Source: Candidatus Shapirobacteria bacterium (GTDB taxonomy: Bacteria > Patescibacteriota > Microgenomatia > UBA12405). Taken from it: 62,664 bases of DNA. The first letter of the stretch is position 1, and each line of letters starts with the position of its first letter. The stretch is from the NCBI GenBank assembly GCA_028704635.1, contig JAQWFB010000006.1, positions 1 through 62,664 of the forward strand, written 5' to 3'. The notes under the pieces are model-generated. The model was not told the DNA's origin. It did no database searches and saw nothing but the letters and a program-made list of their open reading frames with translations. Shown in pieces: positions 11,805 through 53,645 of this stretch. Both the position numbers and the translations under genes were made by a program.

Positions 11805-13895
11805 ATGTTTTCAGATCTTACTTTTATTATTTTTTGGTGGTTCTTGATTTTCATATTAGGTCTATTTTGCTTACCGTTAACTTTTACTTTATTTAAAAAA
11901 TTTTGGGACAAAGGCTATATTTTTTCTAAAACTATTTGTATTGCCATCTTAACTTATCTGATTTTTATTTGCGGTGTTTTTGAAATTTTAACTTTTACCA
12001 ATCTAAATTTATTTTTAATAATATTTTTAATTTTATTTTTTAATTTCTTACTTCTTAATAGAAAAAATAATTTTTCTATTTTTTTAAAAACAATTAAAGA
12101 AAATTACAAAACCTTTGTTTTTCAAGAAATTATTTTTATTTTAATTTTAACCACCTGGTCCTTTGTTCGTGGTTTTATGTCTAATATTGAAGGTTTGGAA
12201 AAATATATGGATTGGGGTTTTATAAATTCTGCCTTAAGATCAGAATTTTTACCACCACAAGACATGTGGTTTTCTGGTGAAATTATAAATTATTATTATT
12301 TTGGTCATCTTATTTTTGCCGTTTTAACCAAATTAAGTAATATCGGCTCAGCCATTACTTACAATTTATCTATTGCCACCGTTTGTGCTCTTGCATTTTC
12401 TTCCACCTTTTCCATTGCTTCTAATTTAGTTTTCCTTTCTTTAAAAAAAATCGATTTCAAAAAAATTATTACTGCTGGTCTAATTTCCGCTTTACTTTTA
12501 ACTTTTGGCGGCAATCTTCACTCTGTTTATAAAATTGTCAAAATAAATATTGTCGATAATGGTAAATTAGTTTTAAACAAAGAGGCCATTGCCAAAGCAG
12601 TTGACAGTTATTGGTATCCCGATGCAACCCGTTTTATTGGTTATGACCCAGATGTAAAAGATAAAACTATTCATGAATTTCCAATTTATAGTTTTGTAGT
12701 TGCCGATCTTCATGGCCATATGAATGATATTCCTATCATTTTATTCTTTATGGCGTTTCTATTGTCATCAAGTTTTTATTCATCATCCTTAATTAGTAGT
12801 CTCTTGATTATTGTTGCTGGTTTTACTTTATCGATTGCCTACATGACTAATGCTTGGGATTTTGCTATTTACGGTCTTCTTTTCGCCATTTTTACTTTCT
12901 TTTCAAATTTAAAAAACGATTCAAAAACAGCCATTAAAAAAGCTTTTACTAACGGTATATTAACTATTGCTTGCTGGTTTATTTTTTCCTTACCTTTTTC
13001 TCTAAAATTTACCCCTATGGGAGAAGGTGTTAAAATTTCTGACACTCACAGTTTTTTTTACCAACTTTTTATTTTATATGGGGGTTTTTGGCTTGTCATT
13101 TTACCTTTATTACTTTTATTTTTAATAAAAAAGATTAAAAAGAAAAAACTAAATTTGCAAACTTCTGATCTTTTTGTCTTAGCCATTGTCGTCACTGCTA
13201 CTCTTTTGATAATTATTCCCGAAATAATTTATTTAAAAGATATTTATATTTACGAGCATCGTCGTGCCAACACTATGTTTAAATTAACTTACCAGGCTTT
13301 TATTATGTACGCTTTGGTTTCTGGATATGCTTTTTATAAAATTCGACTTTTACTAAAATCGAAATGGCTTAATTTTCTGTACGGCATTTTATTTGCCATA
13401 ATTTTTTCAATTCACTTAATTTATCCCTATTTTGCCATTAGATCTTTTTATGGATCTCTTAAAACTTATCAGGGCTTATGGGGATTAAATTATTTAAAAA
13501 ATGACTTCCCTGACAATTTTAATGCTATTAATTGGATTAATAAAAATATTTCTGGACAACCAGTAATGCTTGAAGCTGTTGGTGATAGTTACACTACCTT
13601 TAATCAAGTTTCTGTGTCCACCGGATTGCCGACTGTTGAAGGCTGGATTGTGCACGAATGGCTTTGGCGCGGTGGTTACGACAAGCCAAAAATGCGCCAA
13701 GATAATGTTCAATCAATTTACGAAAGTGATGATCTTAACCGATTAAAACAATTAATTCAAAAATATAATATTAAATATATTTTTATTGGTGATAAGGAAT
13801 ATGAAAAATATCCCGATTTAAATGAAGATAATTTTAAAAAAATTGGTGGGCAAATTATTTTTCAGTCTGGTAAAACTAAAATTTACCAACTATAG
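11805..13895 (+). CDS. DUF2298 (Chlor_Arch_YYY) large polytopic membrane protein, GT-C-like
   Basis: 696 aa with many TM segments. The IINYYYFGH motif is characteristic of the YYY/DUF2298 family. Confidence 0.7.
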   Translation: MFSDLTFIIFWWFLIFILGLFCLPLTFTLFKKFWDKGYIFSKTICIAILTYLIFICGVFEILTFTNLNLFLIIFLILFFNFLLLNRKNNFSIFLKTIKENYKTFVFQEIIFILILTTWSFVRGFMSNIEGLEKYMDWGFINSALRSEFLPPQDMWFSGEIINYYYFGHLIFAVLTKLSNIGSAITYNLSIATVCALAFSSTFSIASNLVFLSLKKIDFKKIITAGLISALLLTFGGNLHSVYKIVKINIVDNGKLVLNKEAIAKAVDSYWYPDATRFIGYDPDVKDKTIHEFPIYSFVVADLHGHMNDIPIILFFMAFLLSSSFYSSSLISSLLIIVAGFTLSIAYMTNAWDFAIYGLLFAIFTFFSNLKNDSKTAIKKAFTNGILTIACWFIFSLPFSLKFTPMGEGVKISDTHSFFYQLFILYGGFWLVILPLLLLFLIKKIKKKKLNLQTSDLFVLAIVVTATLLIIIPEIIYLKDIYIYEHRRANTMFKLTYQAFIMYALVSGYAFYKIRLLLKSKWLNFLYGILFAIIFSIHLIYPYFAIRSFYGSLKTYQGLWGLNYLKNDFPDNFNAINWINKNISGQPVMLEAVGDSYTTFNQVSVSTGLPTVEGWIVHEWLWRGGYDKPKMRQDNVQSIYESDDLNRLKQLIQKYNIKYIFIGDKEYEKYPDLNEDNFKKIGGQIIFQSGKTKIYQL

Positions 13896-13907
13896 TTAAA
13901 CTTGTCC

Positions 13908-15818
13908 ATGGAAGATATTTTAGAAGGGTTAAACCCAAATCAAAAAGAAGCAGTCACTCATATTGGTTCTCCTTTGCTTTTATTAGCTGGAGCTGGCTCT
14001 GGTAAAACTCGGGTCTTAACTCACCGGGTAGTCTATTTTATTCAAAAGAAAATTGCCAAACCCTCAGAAATTTTACTTCTCACTTTCACTAACAAGGCCG
14101 CCGAGGAAATGAAAAATCGCACCCAAAAATTAATACCATCTGTAAGGGCGAATCATGATTCGCCCTTACAAAAAAATACAATCTTTGCTGGAACTTTTCA
14201 CTCTTTTTGTTGTAGAGTTTTACGTGCCGATGGTAATAACATTGGCATTCCTCCTAAATTTGTTATCTATGACTCTAACGATCAGGAAAATTTAATTAAA
14301 AATATTCTTCACGAAATAGGTTTAACCACTAAAGAATTTAAACCATCAAGTGTCTTGTATTATATCGAAGCCGCTAAAAATTCTTTTCAAACTCCAAAAG
14401 ATATGATTGCTCAAAGCCATGGTTTTTGGCAAGATTATGCCAGTAAAATTTATTCTCGTTACCAACAAAAATTATTTGAATTTCATGCTCTCGATTTTAA
14501 TGATCTTTTATTTAAAACAGTTGAATTGTTTTTACAATATCCCGATGTTTTAGCCAAATATCAAGATATTTACAAATTCATTATGGTTGATGAGTATCAA
14601 GACACTAATCAAATTCAATATCTTTTAACTAAACTTTTAGCCCAAAAATATAATCAAATCACTGTTGTCGGTGATGCTTCTCAAGCCATTTATGGTTGGC
14701 GCGGTGCCGATTATCGCAATCTTGTTAGTTTTACTACCGATTTTAAAAACACCAAAGTTATTAATCTTGAAGAAAATTATCGATCCACTCAAATTATTCT
14801 CGATGCCGCCAACACTGTTATTTCCAAAAATAATTCTCATCCCATTCTAAAGTTATTCACTCAAAAAAAATCAGAGGATAAAATTAAAATTTTTGAAGCT
14901 GAATCAGAAGTTGCTGAGGCTGATTTTGTTGCTTCCAAAATTAAATTTATTAATGATAATTTAAAAATTCCTTTACGAAATATTGCCGTTCTTTACCGAA
15001 TGAATGCTCAATCTCGTGTTTTAGAAGAAGCCTTTTTACGTCAGAGCATTCCATATGTTTTACTAGGAGGCATTCGCTTTTATGAACGTGCCGAAATCAA
15101 AGATATTTTATCCATGCTTCGTTTTGCTAGCAATTCGGCCGATCATATTTCTGAGGAAAGAATTGAAAAAGCTCTGGGTAAACGCAAAAAAGCCGTTTTA
15201 ATGGATCATCTCAAAGACATGGATTTAGAAAATCTTACCTCTCTTCAAATTTTAGAATCATTGGTGGTTAATTCTGGCTATCTTGATAAATTTGACGCTA
15301 AAGATGAAGAAGATCAAAAAAGAATCGAAAATATTAAAGAATTAAAATCAGTTGCCGCCTCTTATCCCAATCTATCTGCTTTCTTGGAAAATATTACTCT
15401 GGTTCAGCAGGAATATTCCCTTCAAGAAAAAAATAAGAAAAAAGAAAAACGCGACGGGGTTAAATTAATGACTCTTCATAGTGCTAAAGGGTTGGAGTTT
15501 GAAGTTGTCTTTATGGTGGGGTTTGAAGAGGGAATTTTACCTCATTCTCGTTGTTTAATTAATGAATCAGAAATAGAAGAAGAGCGCCGTCTTTGCTATG
15601 TCGGTATTACTCGTGCCAAAGACTATCTTTATCTCTCCTATGCATCAAGACGCCTATTTTTCGGCAAAAGTAGTTTAAATGAACCCAGCAGATTTCTATC
15701 AGACATCCCGTCTGAATTAGTTGAATTTGAAGAAAGTTTAGAAACCTTTCGTGATTATCGCCACCCCAGAAAATCAAAAGATGATGATGATATCATTTAC
15801 GACCCCGATATTTATTAA
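13908..15818 (+). CDS. pcrA: ATP-dependent DNA helicase PcrA/UvrD (SF1)
   Basis: LNPNQKEAV..LLLLAGAGSGKTRVLTHR (motifs Q/I), VDEYQDTN, VGDASQAIYGWRGA, NYRS, and TLHSAKGLEFEVVF..YVGITRAK. The start is ATG at 13908 or TTG at 13902. Confidence 0.9.
   Translation: MEDILEGLNPNQKEAVTHIGSPLLLLAGAGSGKTRVLTHRVVYFIQKKIAKPSEILLLTFTNKAAEEMKNRTQKLIPSVRANHDSPLQKNTIFAGTFHSFCCRVLRADGNNIGIPPKFVIYDSNDQENLIKNILHEIGLTTKEFKPSSVLYYIEAAKNSFQTPKDMIAQSHGFWQDYASKIYSRYQQKLFEFHALDFNDLLFKTVELFLQYPDVLAKYQDIYKFIMVDEYQDTNQIQYLLTKLLAQKYNQITVVGDASQAIYGWRGADYRNLVSFTTDFKNTKVINLEENYRSTQIILDAANTVISKNNSHPILKLFTQKKSEDKIKIFEAESEVAEADFVASKIKFINDNLKIPLRNIAVLYRMNAQSRVLEEAFLRQSIPYVLLGGIRFYERAEIKDILSMLRFASNSADHISEERIEKALGKRKKAVLMDHLKDMDLENLTSLQILESLVVNSGYLDKFDAKDEEDQKRIENIKELKSVAASYPNLSAFLENITLVQQEYSLQEKNKKKEKRDGVKLMTLHSAKGLEFEVVFMVGFEEGILPHSRCLINESEIEEERRLCYVGITRAKDYLYLSYASRRLFFGKSSLNEPSRFLSDIPSELVEFEESLETFRDYRHPRKSKDDDDIIYDPDIY
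14141..14170. repeat. Perfect 30-bp GC-rich palindrome TGTAAGGGCGAATCATGATTCGCCCTTACA embedded in-frame in pcrA
   Basis: The first 15 nt are the exact reverse complement of the last 15. It encodes VRANHDSPLQ in the variable loop between helicase motifs Ia and Ib. It has the same length, TGTA/TACA termini and CATG centre as the GTAGAGACG palindromes. Confidence 0.85.
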
Positions 15819-33330: not shown

Positions 33331-33334
33331 ACCG

Positions 33335-33362
33335 TAGAGACGCCCCCGGCGGGGCGTCTCTA
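33335..33362. repeat. GC-rich REP-like palindrome TAGAGACGCCCC-CGGC-GGGGCGTCTCTA
   Basis: 12-bp perfect arms and a 4-nt loop, 5 nt after the grpE stop. It shares the (G)TAGAGACG / CGTCTCTA(C) arms with the copies at 35352, 47098 and 53618. Confidence 0.8.
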
Positions 33363-33412
33363 TCTCCAAAAAACAATTTATAAATTAAAAGTTAAAGATT
33401 AAATAAAAACAT

Positions 33413-35351: not shown

Positions 35352-35381
35352 TGTAGAGACGCGCCATGGTGCGTCTCTACA
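35352..35381. repeat. 30-bp REP-like palindrome TGTAGAGACGCGCCATGGTGCGTCTCTACA
   Basis: One mismatch from a perfect palindrome (a G-T pair). It lies 10 nt after the dnaK stop and is identical to the reverse complement of 47098-47127. Confidence 0.85.
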
Positions 35382-35382
35382 A

Positions 35383-35391
35383 TGATAGAAT
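35383..35391 (+). promoter_or_regulatory. Extended -10 element TGATAGAAT, 7 nt upstream of the dnaJ ATG
   Basis: TGnTAGAAT at 35383-35391 with the dnaJ ATG at 35399 and no SD between. This suggests an internal, possibly leaderless, dnaJ promoter. Confidence 0.4.
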
Positions 35392-35398
35392 AGACTTT

Positions 35399-36253
35399 AT
35401 GAAAAAAGATTTTTACGAATTATTAGGCGTCCCTAAAACTGCCACCAAAGAAGAAATTAAAAGCGCTTACCGTAAGTCAGCCTTAAAATTTCACCCCGAT
35501 AAAAACAAAGCTCCTGATGCCGAAGATAAATTCAAAGAAATTAACGAAGCCTATGAAGTTTTAAGTAATGATCAAAAAAAATCGGCTTATGATAAATTCG
35601 GCCATGCCGCTTTTGATCCATCCTCAGGCGGTTTCGGCGGTCACACCTACACTCAGCAAAACGGTCCTAATTTTACTTACACCCAAAGTGGTAATCCGTT
35701 TAGTGGTGCAGATTTTGATTTTGGCGGATTTAGTAACCCTTTTGATATTTTTGAACAATTTTTTGGTGGTTCTTTTAGTGGACAGCAAAGTCAAGGTAAA
35801 CGTCTCGAAACTTATAAAATTTCTCTTTCTTTTTTAGAAGCTGCCAATGGTTGCCAAAAAGAAGTTTCTATCGCTGGCCGTAAAAAAACTCTCAAAATTC
35901 CTGCCGGTGTCGACGATGGTCAAAAAATTCGTTTTTCCGAGTTTATTCTTTATATCGATGTTCAACCAGATAAAATTTTTAAACGCGAAGGTAACGATGT
36001 TTTTGTAAATGTAAATATAAAGCTTAATCAAGCTATTTTTGGTGACACCATCGAAGTTTCCACTCTTAAAGATCCTCTTAAAGTTCGCATAAAACCGGGT
36101 ACTCAACCAAACACTTTAATTCGTCTTAAAGGACAGGGAGTTAAGGATGTAAATGGTTATGGACAAGGAGATTTTTATATTCGTCTTTTTGTTGAAATTC
36201 CAACTAAACTAACTTCTCGTCAAAAAGACTTATTAAAACAGCTAGATTTGTAA
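35399..36253 (+). CDS. dnaJ: J-domain co-chaperone DnaJ/CbpA-like (class B, no zinc-finger domain)
   Basis: DFYELLGV..KSAYRKSALKFHPDKN J-domain and a G/F-rich region, then C-terminal beta domains. No CxxCxGxG repeats. ATG at 35399. Confidence 0.85.
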   Translation: MKKDFYELLGVPKTATKEEIKSAYRKSALKFHPDKNKAPDAEDKFKEINEAYEVLSNDQKKSAYDKFGHAAFDPSSGGFGGHTYTQQNGPNFTYTQSGNPFSGADFDFGGFSNPFDIFEQFFGGSFSGQQSQGKRLETYKISLSFLEAANGCQKEVSIAGRKKTLKIPAGVDDGQKIRFSEFILYIDVQPDKIFKREGNDVFVNVNIKLNQAIFGDTIEVSTLKDPLKVRIKPGTQPNTLIRLKGQGVKDVNGYGQGDFYIRLFVEIPTKLTSRQKDLLKQLDL

Positions 36254-45124: not shown

Positions 45125-46867
45125 ATGTTAAAACAAAAAACAAATATTACAAATGCACCAAATCAAGTTAGAGAATATCGCTCTGGCACCGATTCGGTCC
45201 GAATCAGCTCGCTTGGCGGTTTCGGTGATGTCACTCAAAATATGTTCGTTTACGAATTTATTCCCAGTGGCGATGCTTCAAAAAGCCAAATTATTATTGT
45301 TGATTGTGGTGTCGGTTTTCCTGAAGAGGATGCCTTTGGTGTCGATCTTCAAATTCCCGATACTCATTATCTTCAAGACAAAAAAGATCGAATTTTAGGT
45401 ATTTTTATTACTCATGGTCACGAAGATCACATTGGTGCTATCCGTTTTATTCTGCCAATTTTAGGTCAGAACATTCCAGTTTATGCTCCCAAATTAGCCG
45501 CTGCTTTCATTGAAGCCAGGCTTGGTGAAGTTCAAATTCGTGCCAATTTACAGACTTATGATGAGTCGACTTTACCAATTGTCAAAGGTGTTTTTACCAT
45601 CGATCCAGTTAAAGTCACTCATTCAATTCCTGATACTTATCATTTTGCTATTACCACTCCCATGGGTATTTTTTACCATGGCTCTGACTTCAAACTTGAT
45701 CTTTTTCCTCTTGATGGCAAAGGTGCCGACTATCAACACATTGCTCGCATTGGTGAAGGTAAAGTTATTGCCTTAATGTCGGATAGTTTAGGTTCTGATC
45801 ATGAAGGTTGGTCACCATCAGAAGGTTCCATCGCTGAAAATTTTAAAAGAGAAATCGTCTCTGCTAAAGGTCGTGTTTTTGTCACTTCAATTTCCAGTAA
45901 CATTGTCCGCTGGGCTCAAGCCATCGAATATGGTAAAAGTGTTGGTCGAAAAATAGTTATCGTCGGTTTTTCTGTTGATCGTGCTATTAGTATTGCTAAA
46001 GATTTAGGTTATGTAACTCTTACTGAGACAGATATTGTTCCTCTTGAAAGAGTTAAAAATTTTGCTGAAAATAAACTTTTATTTTTAGTGGCCGGTTTTG
46101 CTGGTCAACCAGACTCAGCTTTAAGTAAGATGATTATGGGTAAACACAGGGTAAAAGTGAAATCTGGTGACAAAGTTATTTTTTCATCTCCAGATTATAT
46201 TCCTGGTACTACTTCTAATATTTATAATATGATTGACCTTCTTTCTAAAATGGGAGCCGAAGTTGTTTATGGCGAAAAGGAAGAGTTACATGTTTCTGGT
46301 CACGGTTACCAAAAAGAACATGCTCTTCTAATCAATTTGTTAAAACCAAAGTATTTATTACCAATTGGTGGTAATTATCGTCATCTCAAATGCTATCAAC
46401 AAATGGCCAAGAAATTAGGCTACAACGAAGACCAGGTTATTTTGCCTGATTTTGATGCTTCGGCTACTTTTCATAGTAATGGTACAGTTGACACTAATTA
46501 TCACATCTCTATCAGAAAAATTTTAATCGACGGATTTGGAGTAGGAGATGTTGGTACTACTGTTTTGCGTGATCGTAAATTATTGGCTGAAGATGGCATG
46601 TTCTCCGTTGTTCTTTTAATGGACAAAGAATCTGGTCAATTAAGTAAACCGCCCGTAATTCTCAGTCGTGGTTTCGTTTTTATGAAAGAAAACACCGAAC
46701 TTATGGACTTTTTAAAATTAGAGGTTAGTAATAAATTTAAACAATCCACTAGCACTCCAGCCAATATGGATTTCATTCGTGAAGAGGTCCAGGCTTATCT
46801 CGAAGAAATTATCTACAAAAAAACCGGCCGCCAACCAATGGTTCTGCCGTTGGTGATTGAAGTTTAA
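45125..46867 (+). CDS. rnj: Ribonuclease J
   Basis: 580 aa with the metallo-beta-lactamase motif ITHGHEDHIGA, a beta-CASP region, HVSGHG, and a C-terminal domain. Confidence 0.9.
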   Translation: MLKQKTNITNAPNQVREYRSGTDSVRISSLGGFGDVTQNMFVYEFIPSGDASKSQIIIVDCGVGFPEEDAFGVDLQIPDTHYLQDKKDRILGIFITHGHEDHIGAIRFILPILGQNIPVYAPKLAAAFIEARLGEVQIRANLQTYDESTLPIVKGVFTIDPVKVTHSIPDTYHFAITTPMGIFYHGSDFKLDLFPLDGKGADYQHIARIGEGKVIALMSDSLGSDHEGWSPSEGSIAENFKREIVSAKGRVFVTSISSNIVRWAQAIEYGKSVGRKIVIVGFSVDRAISIAKDLGYVTLTETDIVPLERVKNFAENKLLFLVAGFAGQPDSALSKMIMGKHRVKVKSGDKVIFSSPDYIPGTTSNIYNMIDLLSKMGAEVVYGEKEELHVSGHGYQKEHALLINLLKPKYLLPIGGNYRHLKCYQQMAKKLGYNEDQVILPDFDASATFHSNGTVDTNYHISIRKILIDGFGVGDVGTTVLRDRKLLAEDGMFSVVLLMDKESGQLSKPPVILSRGFVFMKENTELMDFLKLEVSNKFKQSTSTPANMDFIREEVQAYLEEIIYKKTGRQPMVLPLVIEV

Positions 46868-46871
46868 AGAA

Positions 46872-47447
46872 TTATTTTTGCCAATTAATAGGATTATTTT
46901 TAATATATTGACGTATATTATTTAATTCTATTTCGGATTTGATAATTTGATCATAATAACGACTTTGCCAGCCAAAAAATAAATTATTTTGATTACAAAT
47001 TCGCTTTACTGATGATTTATATTGATTAATGATTTTTGGAATGGTTTGATTAGATTTAATCGCTAATCGATGAAAATGATAATTTTGATATTTTATTTGT
47101 AGAGACGCACCATGGCGCGTCTCTACATGATTATCAAGCGTTTCCACGCTTTTATCTGGCGTCTCTACAAGGAATAGAATATGCACATGATTTGGCATAA
47201 CAATAAATTCATCCAAAATTACATTTGAAAAATGTTTATAAATATCAATTAAATATTGATTTGCAATTTCACCAATAGTTGATAATTCCATTTTATTATT
47301 AATAATTTTTCCAAAGAAATTATTATCGTTTAACGTTTTTATAGTAATAAAATAAAAACCTGGTGTAGAATAATCCCAATTATTTAATCTTGATGATTTT
47401 GTTTTAAATTTATCGGCAAATTTTTCAGGATTTTGAATATCAGACAC
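46872..47447 (-). CDS. IS200-like Y1 (HUH) transposase, REP-associated tyrosine transposase (RAYT)-like
   Basis: 191 aa. It has an HUH motif in MPNHVHILF and the C-terminal GWQSRYYDQIIKSEIELNNIRQYIKNNPINW typical of RAYT/IS200 TnpA. There is no tnpB and no flanking IS ends. The segment VETPDKSVETLDNHVETRHGASLQ is encoded by REP-like palindrome copies. Confidence 0.75.
   Translation of the reverse strand: MSDIQNPEKFADKFKTKSSRLNNWDYSTPGFYFITIKTLNDNNFFGKIINNKMELSTIGEIANQYLIDIYKHFSNVILDEFIVMPNHVHILFLVETPDKSVETLDNHVETRHGASLQIKYQNYHFHRLAIKSNQTIPKIINQYKSSVKRICNQNNLFFGWQSRYYDQIIKSEIELNNIRQYIKNNPINWQK
47098..47127. repeat. 30-bp REP-like palindrome inside the RAYT-like gene
   Basis: TGTAGAGACGCACCATGGCGCGTCTCTACA. 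Its reverse complement (the coding strand) is 30/30 identical to 35352-35381 and encodes VETRHGASLQ. Confidence 0.85.
47158..47169. repeat. Additional REP half-site (GGCGTCTCTACA) inside the RAYT-like gene
   Basis: Exact match to one palindrome arm. A degenerate copy (GTGGAAACG on the coding strand) lies between it and the full palindrome. Confidence 0.6.
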
Positions 47448-47795
47448 ATATTATTATTGCAATATTTATTACATATCTACAATATTAAAAAAATTAACCA
47501 AATAAACCCAATAAAATAAATTAATTCTTTAATAAAATTTGTAAATAATATAAAACTTTTCATAAATGGTTCAATATGGCTAGACCAAAAACTTGGACTT
47601 TTTTTAAAAAGCCCGAACTTTTGGTTTAAATTACTAACTCGTTGTTCCATATTTACTTATACAAAAAGATACTTTCGGTTATCAAGTTTTGATCTTTTAA
47701 CAATAAAAAAGTATCAGATAATCCTCTAACGCTGAGAATATAACACACGTTTTTCTTTTAAAGTAAATAGGTTTAAAAATACGTTATAATAAGCC

Positions 47796-49034
47796 ATGAG
47801 ATACTCACAACTTTTCGGTAAAACCAGTAAAACTGTCGCCTCTGATGCTGACAGTATTAATGCTAAATTATTAACCCAGGGTGGTTTCATTCAAAAAGAA
47901 ATTTCTGGCGTTTATAATTATTTACCTTTAGGTTTGCGTGTTTTAACTAAAATCCAAAATATCGTTCGTGAAGAAATGGATAAAATCGGCGGTCAAGAAA
48001 TCTTAATGCCAGCCATGACTCAAAATGAAAGTTGGATCACCACTGGTCGTAACAACATGGACGTCCTTTTCCATTTTAAAGGTCAAGGCGATACTGATTT
48101 AGTTTTAAATCCCACCCACGAAGAAGTTGTCACTCCTCTAGCTCAAAAATACCTTTTTTCTTATCGCGATTTACCAGTTGCTGTTTATCAAATTCAAAAC
48201 AAGTTTCGAAACGAAGCCAGGGCCAAATCAGGTTTACTTCGTGGTCGCGAATTTAATATGAAAGATCTTTATTCTTTTCATGTCGACGAAGAGGATTTAA
48301 ATCGTTATTACGAAATCGTCAAAAAAGCTTATTTTGAAATTTATAAAAGACTTGAGCTTGATGACATTACAGTTTTAACTTTTGCTTCTGGTGGTGCTTT
48401 TAGTCAATTTTCACACGAATTTCAAACCATAAATGAAAACGGCGAAGACACTATTTATCTTTGTGAAAAATGTAAAATTGCCATTAATAAGGAAATAATT
48501 GATACTCAAAAAACTTGTCCTGAATGTGGTGGTGATAAATTAAAAACTGTTAAAGCCACCGAAGTTGGTAATATTTTTAAATTAAGAACTAAATTTTCAA
48601 AAGCTTTTAATTTTTATTATTCCGATTCAAAAGGTCAAGAAAAAATTGTTGAAATGGGTTGCTATGGTTTTGGTCCATCAAGAACAATGGGGACTATCGT
48701 TGAAATTTTTAACGACAGTAAAGGTATAATTTGGCCAAAATCCATTGCCCCATACCACGTTCATTTGGTTGGACTTGATCTTTTTGATGAAAATATTAAA
48801 ACCCAGGCCGAAAAAATTTATCAAGATTTACTAGACAAAAATATTGAAGTTTTATTTGACGATCGCGTCGATGTCACTGCTGGTGCCAAATTTGCCGACG
48901 CTGATTTAGTTGGTAATCCCATCAGGTTGGTTATTAGTAAACGAAGTCTTGAAAATGGCGGCATTGAATTTAAAAAAAGAAACGAAGAAAAAAGTGAAAT
49001 TCTTCCTCTCGACAAAATTTTTTCCAGAATTTGA
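47796..49034 (+). CDS. proS: Prolyl-tRNA synthetase, bacterial-type core without the INS editing domain
   Basis: 412 aa. MRYSQLFGKT..GFIQKEISGVYNYLPLGLRVL, class II motifs (FRNEARAKSGLLRGREFNMKD, GCYGFGPSR), and an anticodon-binding domain. A CEKC...CPEC zinc-ribbon-like insert sits where INS normally lies. Confidence 0.85.
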   Translation: MRYSQLFGKTSKTVASDADSINAKLLTQGGFIQKEISGVYNYLPLGLRVLTKIQNIVREEMDKIGGQEILMPAMTQNESWITTGRNNMDVLFHFKGQGDTDLVLNPTHEEVVTPLAQKYLFSYRDLPVAVYQIQNKFRNEARAKSGLLRGREFNMKDLYSFHVDEEDLNRYYEIVKKAYFEIYKRLELDDITVLTFASGGAFSQFSHEFQTINENGEDTIYLCEKCKIAINKEIIDTQKTCPECGGDKLKTVKATEVGNIFKLRTKFSKAFNFYYSDSKGQEKIVEMGCYGFGPSRTMGTIVEIFNDSKGIIWPKSIAPYHVHLVGLDLFDENIKTQAEKIYQDLLDKNIEVLFDDRVDVTAGAKFADADLVGNPIRLVISKRSLENGGIEFKKRNEEKSEILPLDKIFSRI

Positions 49035-53529: not shown

Positions 53530-53552
53530 CTTTTTATTTCTCTAATTTTTTA

Positions 53553-53600
53553 GCCGGCAGGTCAATGTATAAAATACATCCTGTCGGCCTTTTCTTTTTT
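53553..53600 (+). terminator. Intrinsic terminator of the small-ORF cassette
   Basis: GCCGGCAGG..ATGTAT-AAA-ATACAT..CCTGTCGGC stem followed by CTTTTCTTTTTT. Confidence 0.7.
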
Positions 53601-53617
53601 ATTAAATTAATTAGACT

Positions 53618-53645
53618 GTAGAGACGTTCTGCAGAACGTCTCTAC
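53618..53645. repeat. Perfect 28-bp REP-like palindrome GTAGAGACGTTCTGCAGAACGTCTCTAC
   Basis: Exact self-complement with the same GTAGAGACG arms as the copies at 33335, 35352 and 47098. It lies between the cassette terminator and the alaS promoter. Confidence 0.85.

Follow-up and report, generated by a model that had tools for sequence, protein, structure and literature searches.

A REP palindrome within its own RAYT gene: a probable TnpA_Y1 subclass 2.4 system in a genome of probable Shapirobacteria origin

Subclass 2.4 of the TnpA_Y1 proteins, equivalent to group 4 in the Bertels classification of tyrosine transposases that accompany repetitive extragenic palindromes (REPs), the RAYTs, is the closest described counterpart of the locus considered here. 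That locus belongs to a 62.7-kb stretch of DNA (contig JAQWFB010000006.1, called the window below and analysed over its full length of 62,664 nt). It consists of a solitary Y1 transposase gene and a small family of GC-rich palindromes, one of which is embedded in the transposase gene itself. We regard it as very probably a REP/RAYT system of the subclass 2.4 kind together with its cognate REPs. The motifs and fold of the protein place it in this family, and the anatomy of the palindromes, their enrichment, and their turnover among relatives are evident from the sequences. A REP inside a RAYT open reading frame (ORF) had been implied to be novel in a preliminary description of this DNA. The arrangement has, however, been in the literature since 2018 (PMC6006769) as a hallmark of one RAYT subclass, and the window is a further example of it.

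Quentin, Siguier, Chandler and Fichant (2018, BMC Genomics 19:475, PMC6006769) characterised subclass 2.4 by the motifs NH[IFV]H, WQ, and YIxNNP and by a median length of 194 aa. Its members carry a variable insertion between strand beta3 and helix alphaC that contains short DNA repeats. This insert was modelled as a peripheral loop, probably with little impact on activity (PMC6006769). The REPs of the subclass are described as 'long' or 'double foot', with 5' GT[AG]G and 3' C[TC]AC; canonical copies occur within ±1000 nt of most of the genes, and in-frame copies occur inside tnpA_REP between the HuH motif and the tyrosine (PMC6006769). In the same scheme a Y---NP signature marks class 2, whereas Y---Q marks the TnpA of IS200. 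The survey covered 2,355 complete genomes, with candidate phyla unmentioned, and its Table S1 lists 25 REP strings containing GTAGAGAC, among them GTAGAGACAGGGCATTGCCCTGTCTCTAC, which is flagged as double foot. Bertels et al. (2017) reported group 4 from 17 bacterial classes, with flanking 16-mers of modest abundance (about 14 occurrences). The GTAG-tagged REP super-family was defined by Di Nocera et al. (2013, PMC3733652), who also described REPs inserted in frame into further genes, particularly those for repair.

The window gene encodes a protein of near-typical length whose position and motifs both fit this background. As the preliminary description had noted, it is a solitary Y1 gene between rnj and proS. 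The rnj gene (RNase J, 45125-46867) is convergent and ends 4 nt away, and proS (47796-49034) is divergent. No adjoining tnpB, no second Y1 gene, and no insertion sequence (IS) ends were found in its surroundings, and the gene occurs once in the window. The earlier view of the protein as RAYT-type also stands. Pfam Y1_Tnp (PF01797) matches at 28 bits, above its cut-off of 23, and the top NCBIfam match is REP_Tyr_transpos at 48.5 bits. The protein contains NHVH (the HUH motif, H87-V88-H89), W160-Q161, and YIKNNP (Y181, N185). A profile built from 46 homologs returned E. coli TnpA_REP (4er8) as the sole significant solved relative. In this alignment H87 and H89 pair with H59 and H61 (H59-M60-H61), Y181 falls opposite Y115, the catalytic tyrosine, and N185 falls opposite N119, a metal ligand, the roles of the 4er8 residues being those given by Messing et al. 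(2012, PMC3479197). A catalytic tyrosine is therefore present on alignment, and H87, H89, Y181, and N185 are invariant among the 46 homologs.

Structural comparison leads to the same relative. The AlphaFold2 model of the protein (mean pLDDT 78, pTM 0.73) has 4er8_A as its top match in the PDB, with a root-mean-square deviation of 2.3 Å over 161 columns and 13% identity. The TnpA proteins of IS608 and ISDra2 follow, and 4er8, 2a6m, 2vju, and 2xm3 all reach E <= 1e-5. Residues 99-122, located between the HUH strand (87-94) and helix 123-132, form the sole internal part with a pLDDT below 50, and they are encoded by the palindrome and half-sites described below. The ratio of nonsynonymous to synonymous substitution rates (dN/dS) against close orthologs is 0.16-0.21, and hence the protein is under purifying selection. 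Its closest database relatives are annotated as Candidatus Shapirobacteria, and therefore the source genome probably belongs to a Microgenomates bacterium of the Candidate Phyla Radiation (CPR).

Two known Y1 systems share part of this profile. With E. coli TnpA_REP and its REPtron (subclass 2.2, 4er8, PMC3479197), the window protein has in common the fold, the HUH, Tyr, and Asn residues (Y..NP), and the pair W94/Q95 of the GTAG-binding region, which corresponds to W160/Q161; both systems also feature a 5' GTAG foot and a solitary domesticated gene. The E. coli REPs differ in being imperfect, bulged hairpins with an unpaired GTAG, and they flank the gene as bacterial interspersed mosaic elements (BIMEs) instead of lying inside it. 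Moreover, a C-terminal extension (E161) distinguishes the E. coli protein, which is without the beta3-alphaC insert. The TnpA proteins of IS200/IS605 elements (IS608, ISDra2) are likewise Y1 HUH enzymes that recognise hairpins on single-stranded DNA (ssDNA). In contrast, they carry Y---Q and belong to autonomous multi-copy IS with subterminal hairpins and often tnpB, none of which was found for the window gene.

The palindromes were assessed by an exact search of the window for GTAGAGACG-N6-14-CGTCTCTAC, with 100 dinucleotide-preserving shuffles as control. Three exact full palindromes of the form GTAGAGACG-N10-CGTCTCTAC are present against 0.00 expected, so the family is enriched in the window. 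The 9-mer arm with at most one mismatch gives 13 matches (2.5 expected), and the arm motif GTRGRGACR gives 8 (0.7 expected), in DNA of about 32% GC. The copies that had been reported at the grpE, dnaK, alaS, and in-gene sites were all located, three of them exact and one near-exact (Table 1). Their earlier classification as REPs is also borne out: they are GC-rich hairpins within the 20-40 nt size range of the GTAG super-family, they possess the GT[AG]G foot, the defining mark of RAYT-associated REPs, and one copy falls within the ORF. The design consists of 9-nt outer arms that are fixed and an inner 10 nt that are variable yet self-complementary. For instance, the alaS copy is a perfect 28-nt palindrome with the inner sequence TTCTGCAGAA, and the copy between grpE and dnaK has a CCCC/GGGG inner stem and a single mismatch at the final foot base (..CTAT). 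As ssDNA, the window REPs fold into hairpins of 12-13 bp with energies of -12 to -14.6 kcal/mol and z-scores of -4.6 to -6.9 relative to shuffled sequences. Searched against Rfam at gathering thresholds, the whole window gave no match to a known RNA family.

Table 1. Positions of the RAYT gene, the REPs, and related palindromes (window coordinates, except for the last four rows, which refer to related loci)
Feature	Position	Strand	Context or remark
tnpA_REP / RAYT gene, TnpA_Y1 subclass 2.4-like	46872..47447	minus	191 aa, GTG start
Intragenic double-foot REP	47099-47126 (28 nt; 30-nt palindrome 47098-47127 with T/A flanks)	minus	inside RAYT ORF
Degenerate half-site GTGGAAACG (coding strand)	47139..47147	minus	GTAGAAACG in 95%-identical ortholog L087
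Remnant left half of older intragenic REP, GTAGAGACGCCAGAT (coding strand)	47154..47168	minus	full palindrome in syntenic orthologs
Extragenic REP, near-exact	33334-33363	no strand	after grpE stop, between grpE and dnaK
Extragenic REP GTAGAGACGCGCCATGGTGCGTCTCTAC	35353-35380	no strand	between dnaK stop (35341) and dnaJ start (35399)
Extragenic REP	53618-53645	no strand	32 nt before alaS start (53677)
30-nt perfect palindrome TGTAAGGGCGAATCATGATTCGCCCTTACA	14141..14170	+	in frame in PcrA/UvrD-type helicase ORF 13902-15818
Palindrome upstream of HUH, L014	10139-10166		short-linker sub-clade
Palindrome upstream of HUH, L021	10175-10196		short-linker sub-clade
Palindrome upstream of HUH, L059	3132-3159		short-linker sub-clade
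Palindrome upstream of HUH, L057	1971-2002		short-linker sub-clade

The in-gene copy matches a genomic one. Read on the coding strand, it is identical to the dnaK-dnaJ REP, as had been reported, and the identity extends to 31/31 nt (TGTAGAGACGCGCCATGGTGCGTCTCTACAA); the two copies lie in opposite orientation in the window. The dnaK-dnaJ REP is intergenic, because the DnaJ-type N-terminus (MKKDFYELLGV) begins at 35399. In a mechanical ORF list, dnaJ (35366-36253, +) starts at an ATG at 35366 inside the REP. Within the RAYT gene, the palindrome encodes (H)VETRHGASLQ as part of the disordered beta3-alphaC linker. An extra exact half-site (47160-47168) lies just upstream of it, and the degenerate half-site is located between the two. 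Palindrome and half-sites together yield the peptide HVHILFLVETPDKSVETLDNHVETRHGASLQ immediately after the HUH motif, in agreement with the preliminary description.

A family-wide comparison indicates that such palindromes are concentrated in the linkers of RAYT genes relative to their flanks. We fetched 80 related loci from species-representative genomes, with hosts among Shapirobacteria, other CPR members, Bacteroidota, Cyanobacteria, Gammaproteobacteria, Ignavibacteria, Chlorobi, Chloroflexi, Cloacimonadota, and others. The 77 loci with a delimitable gene were analysed. A strict palindrome, defined as GT[AG]G...C[CT]AC having 8 or more perfect outer pairs and located in the linker from HUH to WQ, is present in 33 of these 77 genes, and most of the remaining ones contain a GC-rich linker palindrome without a complete foot. 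The density of strict palindromes per kb amounts to 2.10 in linkers, 0.16 elsewhere in the ORFs, and 0.036 in the flanks (1.16 Mb); linker palindromes are thus 58 times denser than those in the flanks. Of the 62 loci for which 10 kb or more of flank was available, 20 have no copy other than the in-gene one. The commonest arm is GTAGAGACG (19/35), although the RAYT proteins are only 35-50% identical. In a short-linker sub-clade whose HUH-WQ linker is free of palindromes, a palindrome is found inside the ORF, some 100-135 nt upstream of the codons for HUH (Table 1), at what looks like a second permissive site.

The reading frames of the in-gene palindromes reveal the level at which they are conserved. 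In the homolog alignment, the stretch after MPNHVHIL is hypervariable in length and contains one to three copies of VETxxxASL(Q), or RDxxxxVST. A REP-coded peptide occurs in 97 of 116 homologous proteins under a strict pattern, with mixed-frame variants in most others. In 21 cases the palindrome begins its GTAG in frame 0 (VET..ASL) and in 14 cases in frame 1 (RD..VST); frame 2 is never used. Since frame 2 would read TAG as a stop, two peptides, VET..ASL and RD..VST, recur in database entries labelled 'transposase' from many phyla. The same DNA is read in two frames, and therefore conservation acts at the DNA level and not on the peptide. Outside the family, a scan of a genome collection for GTAGAGACG-N10-CGTCTCTAC matched at least 120 stretches from many phyla. 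Among the matches listed, 125 of 128 copies are located outside RAYT-like genes, and their inner 10 nt are mostly self-complementary. The element is a widespread dispersed repeat with fixed outer arms and a free inner stem.

Close orthologs document how the content of the linker changes. The gene order rnj-RAYT-proS is shared by four related loci (L081, L082, L084, and L085), and L083 is found in another genomic context. In all four syntenic orthologs, ..ILFL is followed immediately by another palindrome, GTAGAGACGCCAGATCTGGCGTCTCTAC; L082 has a second, partial copy of it (24/28 nt) beyond an AT-rich spacer of about 85 nt. In the window gene, the extra half-site plus 6 more nucleotides (CTTGTAGAGACGCCAGAT) exactly equals the left half of GTAGAGACGCCAGATCTGGCGTCTCTAC, and hence the half-site is a remnant of an older REP. 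Up to the centre of this old REP, the window linker (47020-47215) is of the L081/L082/L084 type. Downstream of it (IKYQNYHFHRLAIKS), the linker is of the L083/L086/L087 type and not of the DNRKITLINYSHNNHPDFY type. Because the two sides match different ortholog types, the linker is a mosaic, which suggests recombination or replacement at the palindrome.

A second comparison concerns orientation. L087 and the window gene share 95.3% nucleotide identity (27/576 differences), and only two of these differences fall in the 28-nt element. Both affect the bases of its single non-Watson-Crick pair, so that one element is the exact reverse complement of the other (CGCCATGGTG vs CACCATGGCG). The probability of this pattern arising by independent substitution is about 2e-4. 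The in-gene palindrome is also an exact reverse complement in L086, at 89% DNA identity (L087 772-801, L086 1277-1308). Judged from these sequences, the in-gene element has been inverted or re-inserted between orthologs. The extragenic copies vary as well, the REP upstream of alaS being absent at the orthologous site in L081, L082, and L084. By this comparison, the in-gene site is constant, and its content and the extragenic copies change.

The E. coli precedent provides a plausible mechanism. The RAYT would act as a single-domain HUH/Tyr ssDNA endonuclease-ligase that binds the REP hairpin and reads its 5' GTAG foot base-specifically, as E. coli TnpA_REP does. Cleavage and rejoining at the foot, established for 4er8, would proceed through Y181 in the window protein, and this activity would allow REPs to be spread, excised, or inverted. 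With a foot on each strand, the two strands would offer the same substrate, which fits insertion in either orientation and the flip between orthologs. On this view, the disordered beta3-alphaC surface loop tolerates the in-gene REP. The linker is a turnover hot spot that holds both the decayed half of an older REP and a newer complete REP identical to the genomic copy. We infer catalysis on these hairpins, and any present-day mobility, by analogy.

Several observations weigh against the subclass 2.4 assignment or against an active system. No canonical REP lies within ±1 kb of the RAYT gene outside its ORF, and the closest one, at 53618, is about 6.2-6.5 kb away. The copy number is low, with 4-5 REPs in 62.7 kb, a density that extrapolates to tens per Mb; REPs of the GTAG super-family often exceed 100 copies in a genome. 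The flanks of the four syntenic relatives (10-20 kb) contain 0 extragenic GTAGAGACG palindromes, and this lack, combined with the low copy number, makes current activity uncertain. The NCBIfam score stays below the REP_Tyr_transpos equivalog cut-off of 80. We suspect that the low score arises from a model presumably built on distant (proteobacterial) members. In addition, cleavage of double-foot REPs by a subclass 2.4 protein would be an extrapolation from the E. coli enzyme of subclass 2.2.

Set against the published account of subclass 2.4, the locus agrees in its motifs, its length (191 vs ~194 aa), its variable insert with short DNA repeats, its double-foot REPs, and the in-frame REP within the gene. 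Low copy number and a patchy multi-phylum distribution are shared as well, homologs of the window protein coming from Cyanobacteria, Bacteroidota, and various other phyla at 35-45% identity. It differs in its host, which is probably a CPR bacterium (Shapirobacteria) outside the 2018 survey, and in having no REP within 1 kb. The orientation flip and the half-REP remnant are details absent from the PMC6006769 description. Our literature search found no work linking RAYT/TnpA_REP with CPR/Patescibacteria, and full-text matches to GTAGAGACG were confined to primers and cloning sites. New elements are the probable CPR host, the linker enrichment figures, the argument from two frames, the inverted element and the half-REP remnant seen when close orthologs are compared, and the REP-like palindrome that lies in frame in pcrA/uvrD as a second case.

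These results serve mainly to annotate the locus correctly. The gene labelled 'transposase' that separates rnj from proS is best recorded as a domesticated RAYT and the GC-rich palindromes as its REPs, which are not to be mistaken for terminators, operators, or assembly artefacts. The REP-in-gene arrangement of subclass 2.4 extends to a probable CPR (Shapirobacteria) genome and to other CPR lineages, and very small AT-rich genomes can keep a REP/RAYT system under purifying selection. Moreover, the 58-fold linker enrichment, the reading of palindromes in either stop-free frame, and their inversion and replacement among close orthologs sharpen the question of why the gene for the enzyme almost always carries its substrate, a feature termed 'probably neutral' in the 2018 paper.

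The published and simplest view of the in-gene copy combines a permissive loop with a strong local insertion bias, and the enrichment and persistence of the copy also fit selection in cis. On that alternative, which we consider possible but doubtful, the in-gene REP is a selected cis element. It would serve either as an autoregulatory hairpin, in mRNA or transient ssDNA, bound by the product of the gene, or as a heritable 'seed' copy by which enzyme and substrate stay linked during vertical and horizontal transfer. The linker enrichment and the loci in which the in-gene copy stands alone speak for it, as do the presence of a palindrome in almost all homologs and its relocation within the ORF in the short-linker sub-clade (L014, L021, L057, and L059). 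The syntenic relatives also retain the in-gene copy while their extragenic copies differ or are absent, and the 9-nt arms persist across phyla in genes only 35-45% identical. However, a strong cis insertion bias, with new REPs drawn to existing ones and an enzyme active close to its own gene, would give an equal pattern in a permissive loop. Variable position in the linker, remnants, duplications, and replacement point to repeated insertion and not to a fixed element. The in-gene palindrome is 28/28 identical among L081, L082, and L084 at about 90% gene identity, which is only weakly significant with three orthologs, and the model of Quentin et al. (PMC6006769), in which the insert lies at the periphery and would affect activity little, also tells against a selected role. 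In a stronger form of the idea, the in-gene REP of subclass 2.4 would be an obligatory functional part, always co-inherited with the enzyme, with genomic copies exchanged from or into it, and it might in addition act back on expression. This is suggested by the identity of the in-gene copy to a genomic copy and by its flip between orthologs, and we rate it as rather unlikely. If true, the gene and its internal hairpin would form a minimal self-contained REP/RAYT unit capable of seeding new genomes after horizontal transfer, streamlined CPR genomes included.

It is very unlikely that the palindromes serve host regulation (as intrinsic terminators, as attenuators in the grpE-dnaK-dnaJ operon, or as operators) without any relation to the Y1 protein. 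Three copies do occupy short intergenic spacers, two of them within the heat-shock operon, and REPs elsewhere in bacteria are reported to act on mRNA 3' ends. A secondary effect of the REPs on mRNA stability is possible. Nonetheless, the terminator scan found no sense-strand T-run after the palindromes, which are terminator-like on the antisense strand only, and a separate hairpin with a T-run is located about 20 nt upstream of the alaS REP; on these two grounds we rejected intrinsic terminators. By eye, this neighbouring structure (53552-53600, AGCCGGCAGG...CCTGTCGGCCTTTTCTTTTTT) is a GC-stem hairpin followed by a T-run, and it resembles an ordinary intrinsic terminator distinct from the REP. 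The arms, which carry the RAYT-specific GTAG foot, also recur within the ORF of the window RAYT and within those of RAYTs from many phyla. The palindromes differ from the CIRCE heat-shock operator, which reads TTAGCACTC-N9-GAGTGCTAA.

It is extremely improbable that the gene belongs, as transposase, to an autonomous IS of the IS200/IS605 type that has the palindromes as its ends or solo ends. The Y1_Tnp fold and motifs would suit such an element, and the close homolog L083 does occur in a different genomic context. Against this, the protein has YIKNNP, of the class 2 Y---NP type, in place of the IS200 TnpA Y---Q. The gene lies 4 nt from the rnj stop with neither tnpB nor flanking subterminal hairpins, occurs once in the window, is under purifying selection, and keeps its place between rnj and proS in L081, L082, L084, and L085. 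The Y..NP motif, the synteny, and the absent tnpB and IS ends together speak against the autonomous element. Finally, the notion that VET...ASLQ is a conserved protein motif and the palindrome a by-product of its coding can be set aside almost completely, for although the peptide recurs in many homologs, this notion is refuted by the use of two reading frames (VET..ASL and RD..VST, with VETPRRDVST among the mixed forms), disorder is predicted for the segment, which varies in copy number and position, and identical palindromes exist outside genes.

Some minor features of these loci complete the picture of the REP/RAYT system. The gap between the RAYT gene and proS contains a 57-aa ORF (47477-47650, minus strand), whose product is not conserved across orthologous loci and which is probably non-coding spacer rather than a partner of the RAYT. 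Small ORFs are also called in this gap in relatives, and only that of L082 resembles the window product, in its N-terminal half. In L081, an extragenic palindrome at 13009-13041 (GTATATACGCCCCGTACCACGGGGCGTATATAC) follows a like design with different arms and a GTAT foot, and it may represent a diverged REP sub-family.

The window contains one further in-frame palindrome, in a pcrA/uvrD-type helicase gene (Table 1). It has the form TGTA...TACA with a GTAA foot, and its arms agree with those of the REPs at 6 of 9 positions. The peptide encoded, SVRANHDSPLQ, corresponds to an insertion of 9 residues when compared with PcrA 2pjr, placed after motif Ia (TFTNKAAEEM) and before GTFHS. From its sequence, this palindrome probably belongs to the REP family of the window. 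The intragenic GTAG/CGTC REPs and Rickettsia palindromic elements (PMC3733652) offer the nearest parallel, being in-frame palindromes in loops of housekeeping proteins, many of them for replication or repair, which the pcrA/uvrD copy fits. They differ in that the accessible sections of that paper report no REPs in RAYT genes, and in the pcrA foot, which is GTAA and not GTAG. The location of this palindrome echoes the reported preference of intragenic REPs for replication and repair genes.

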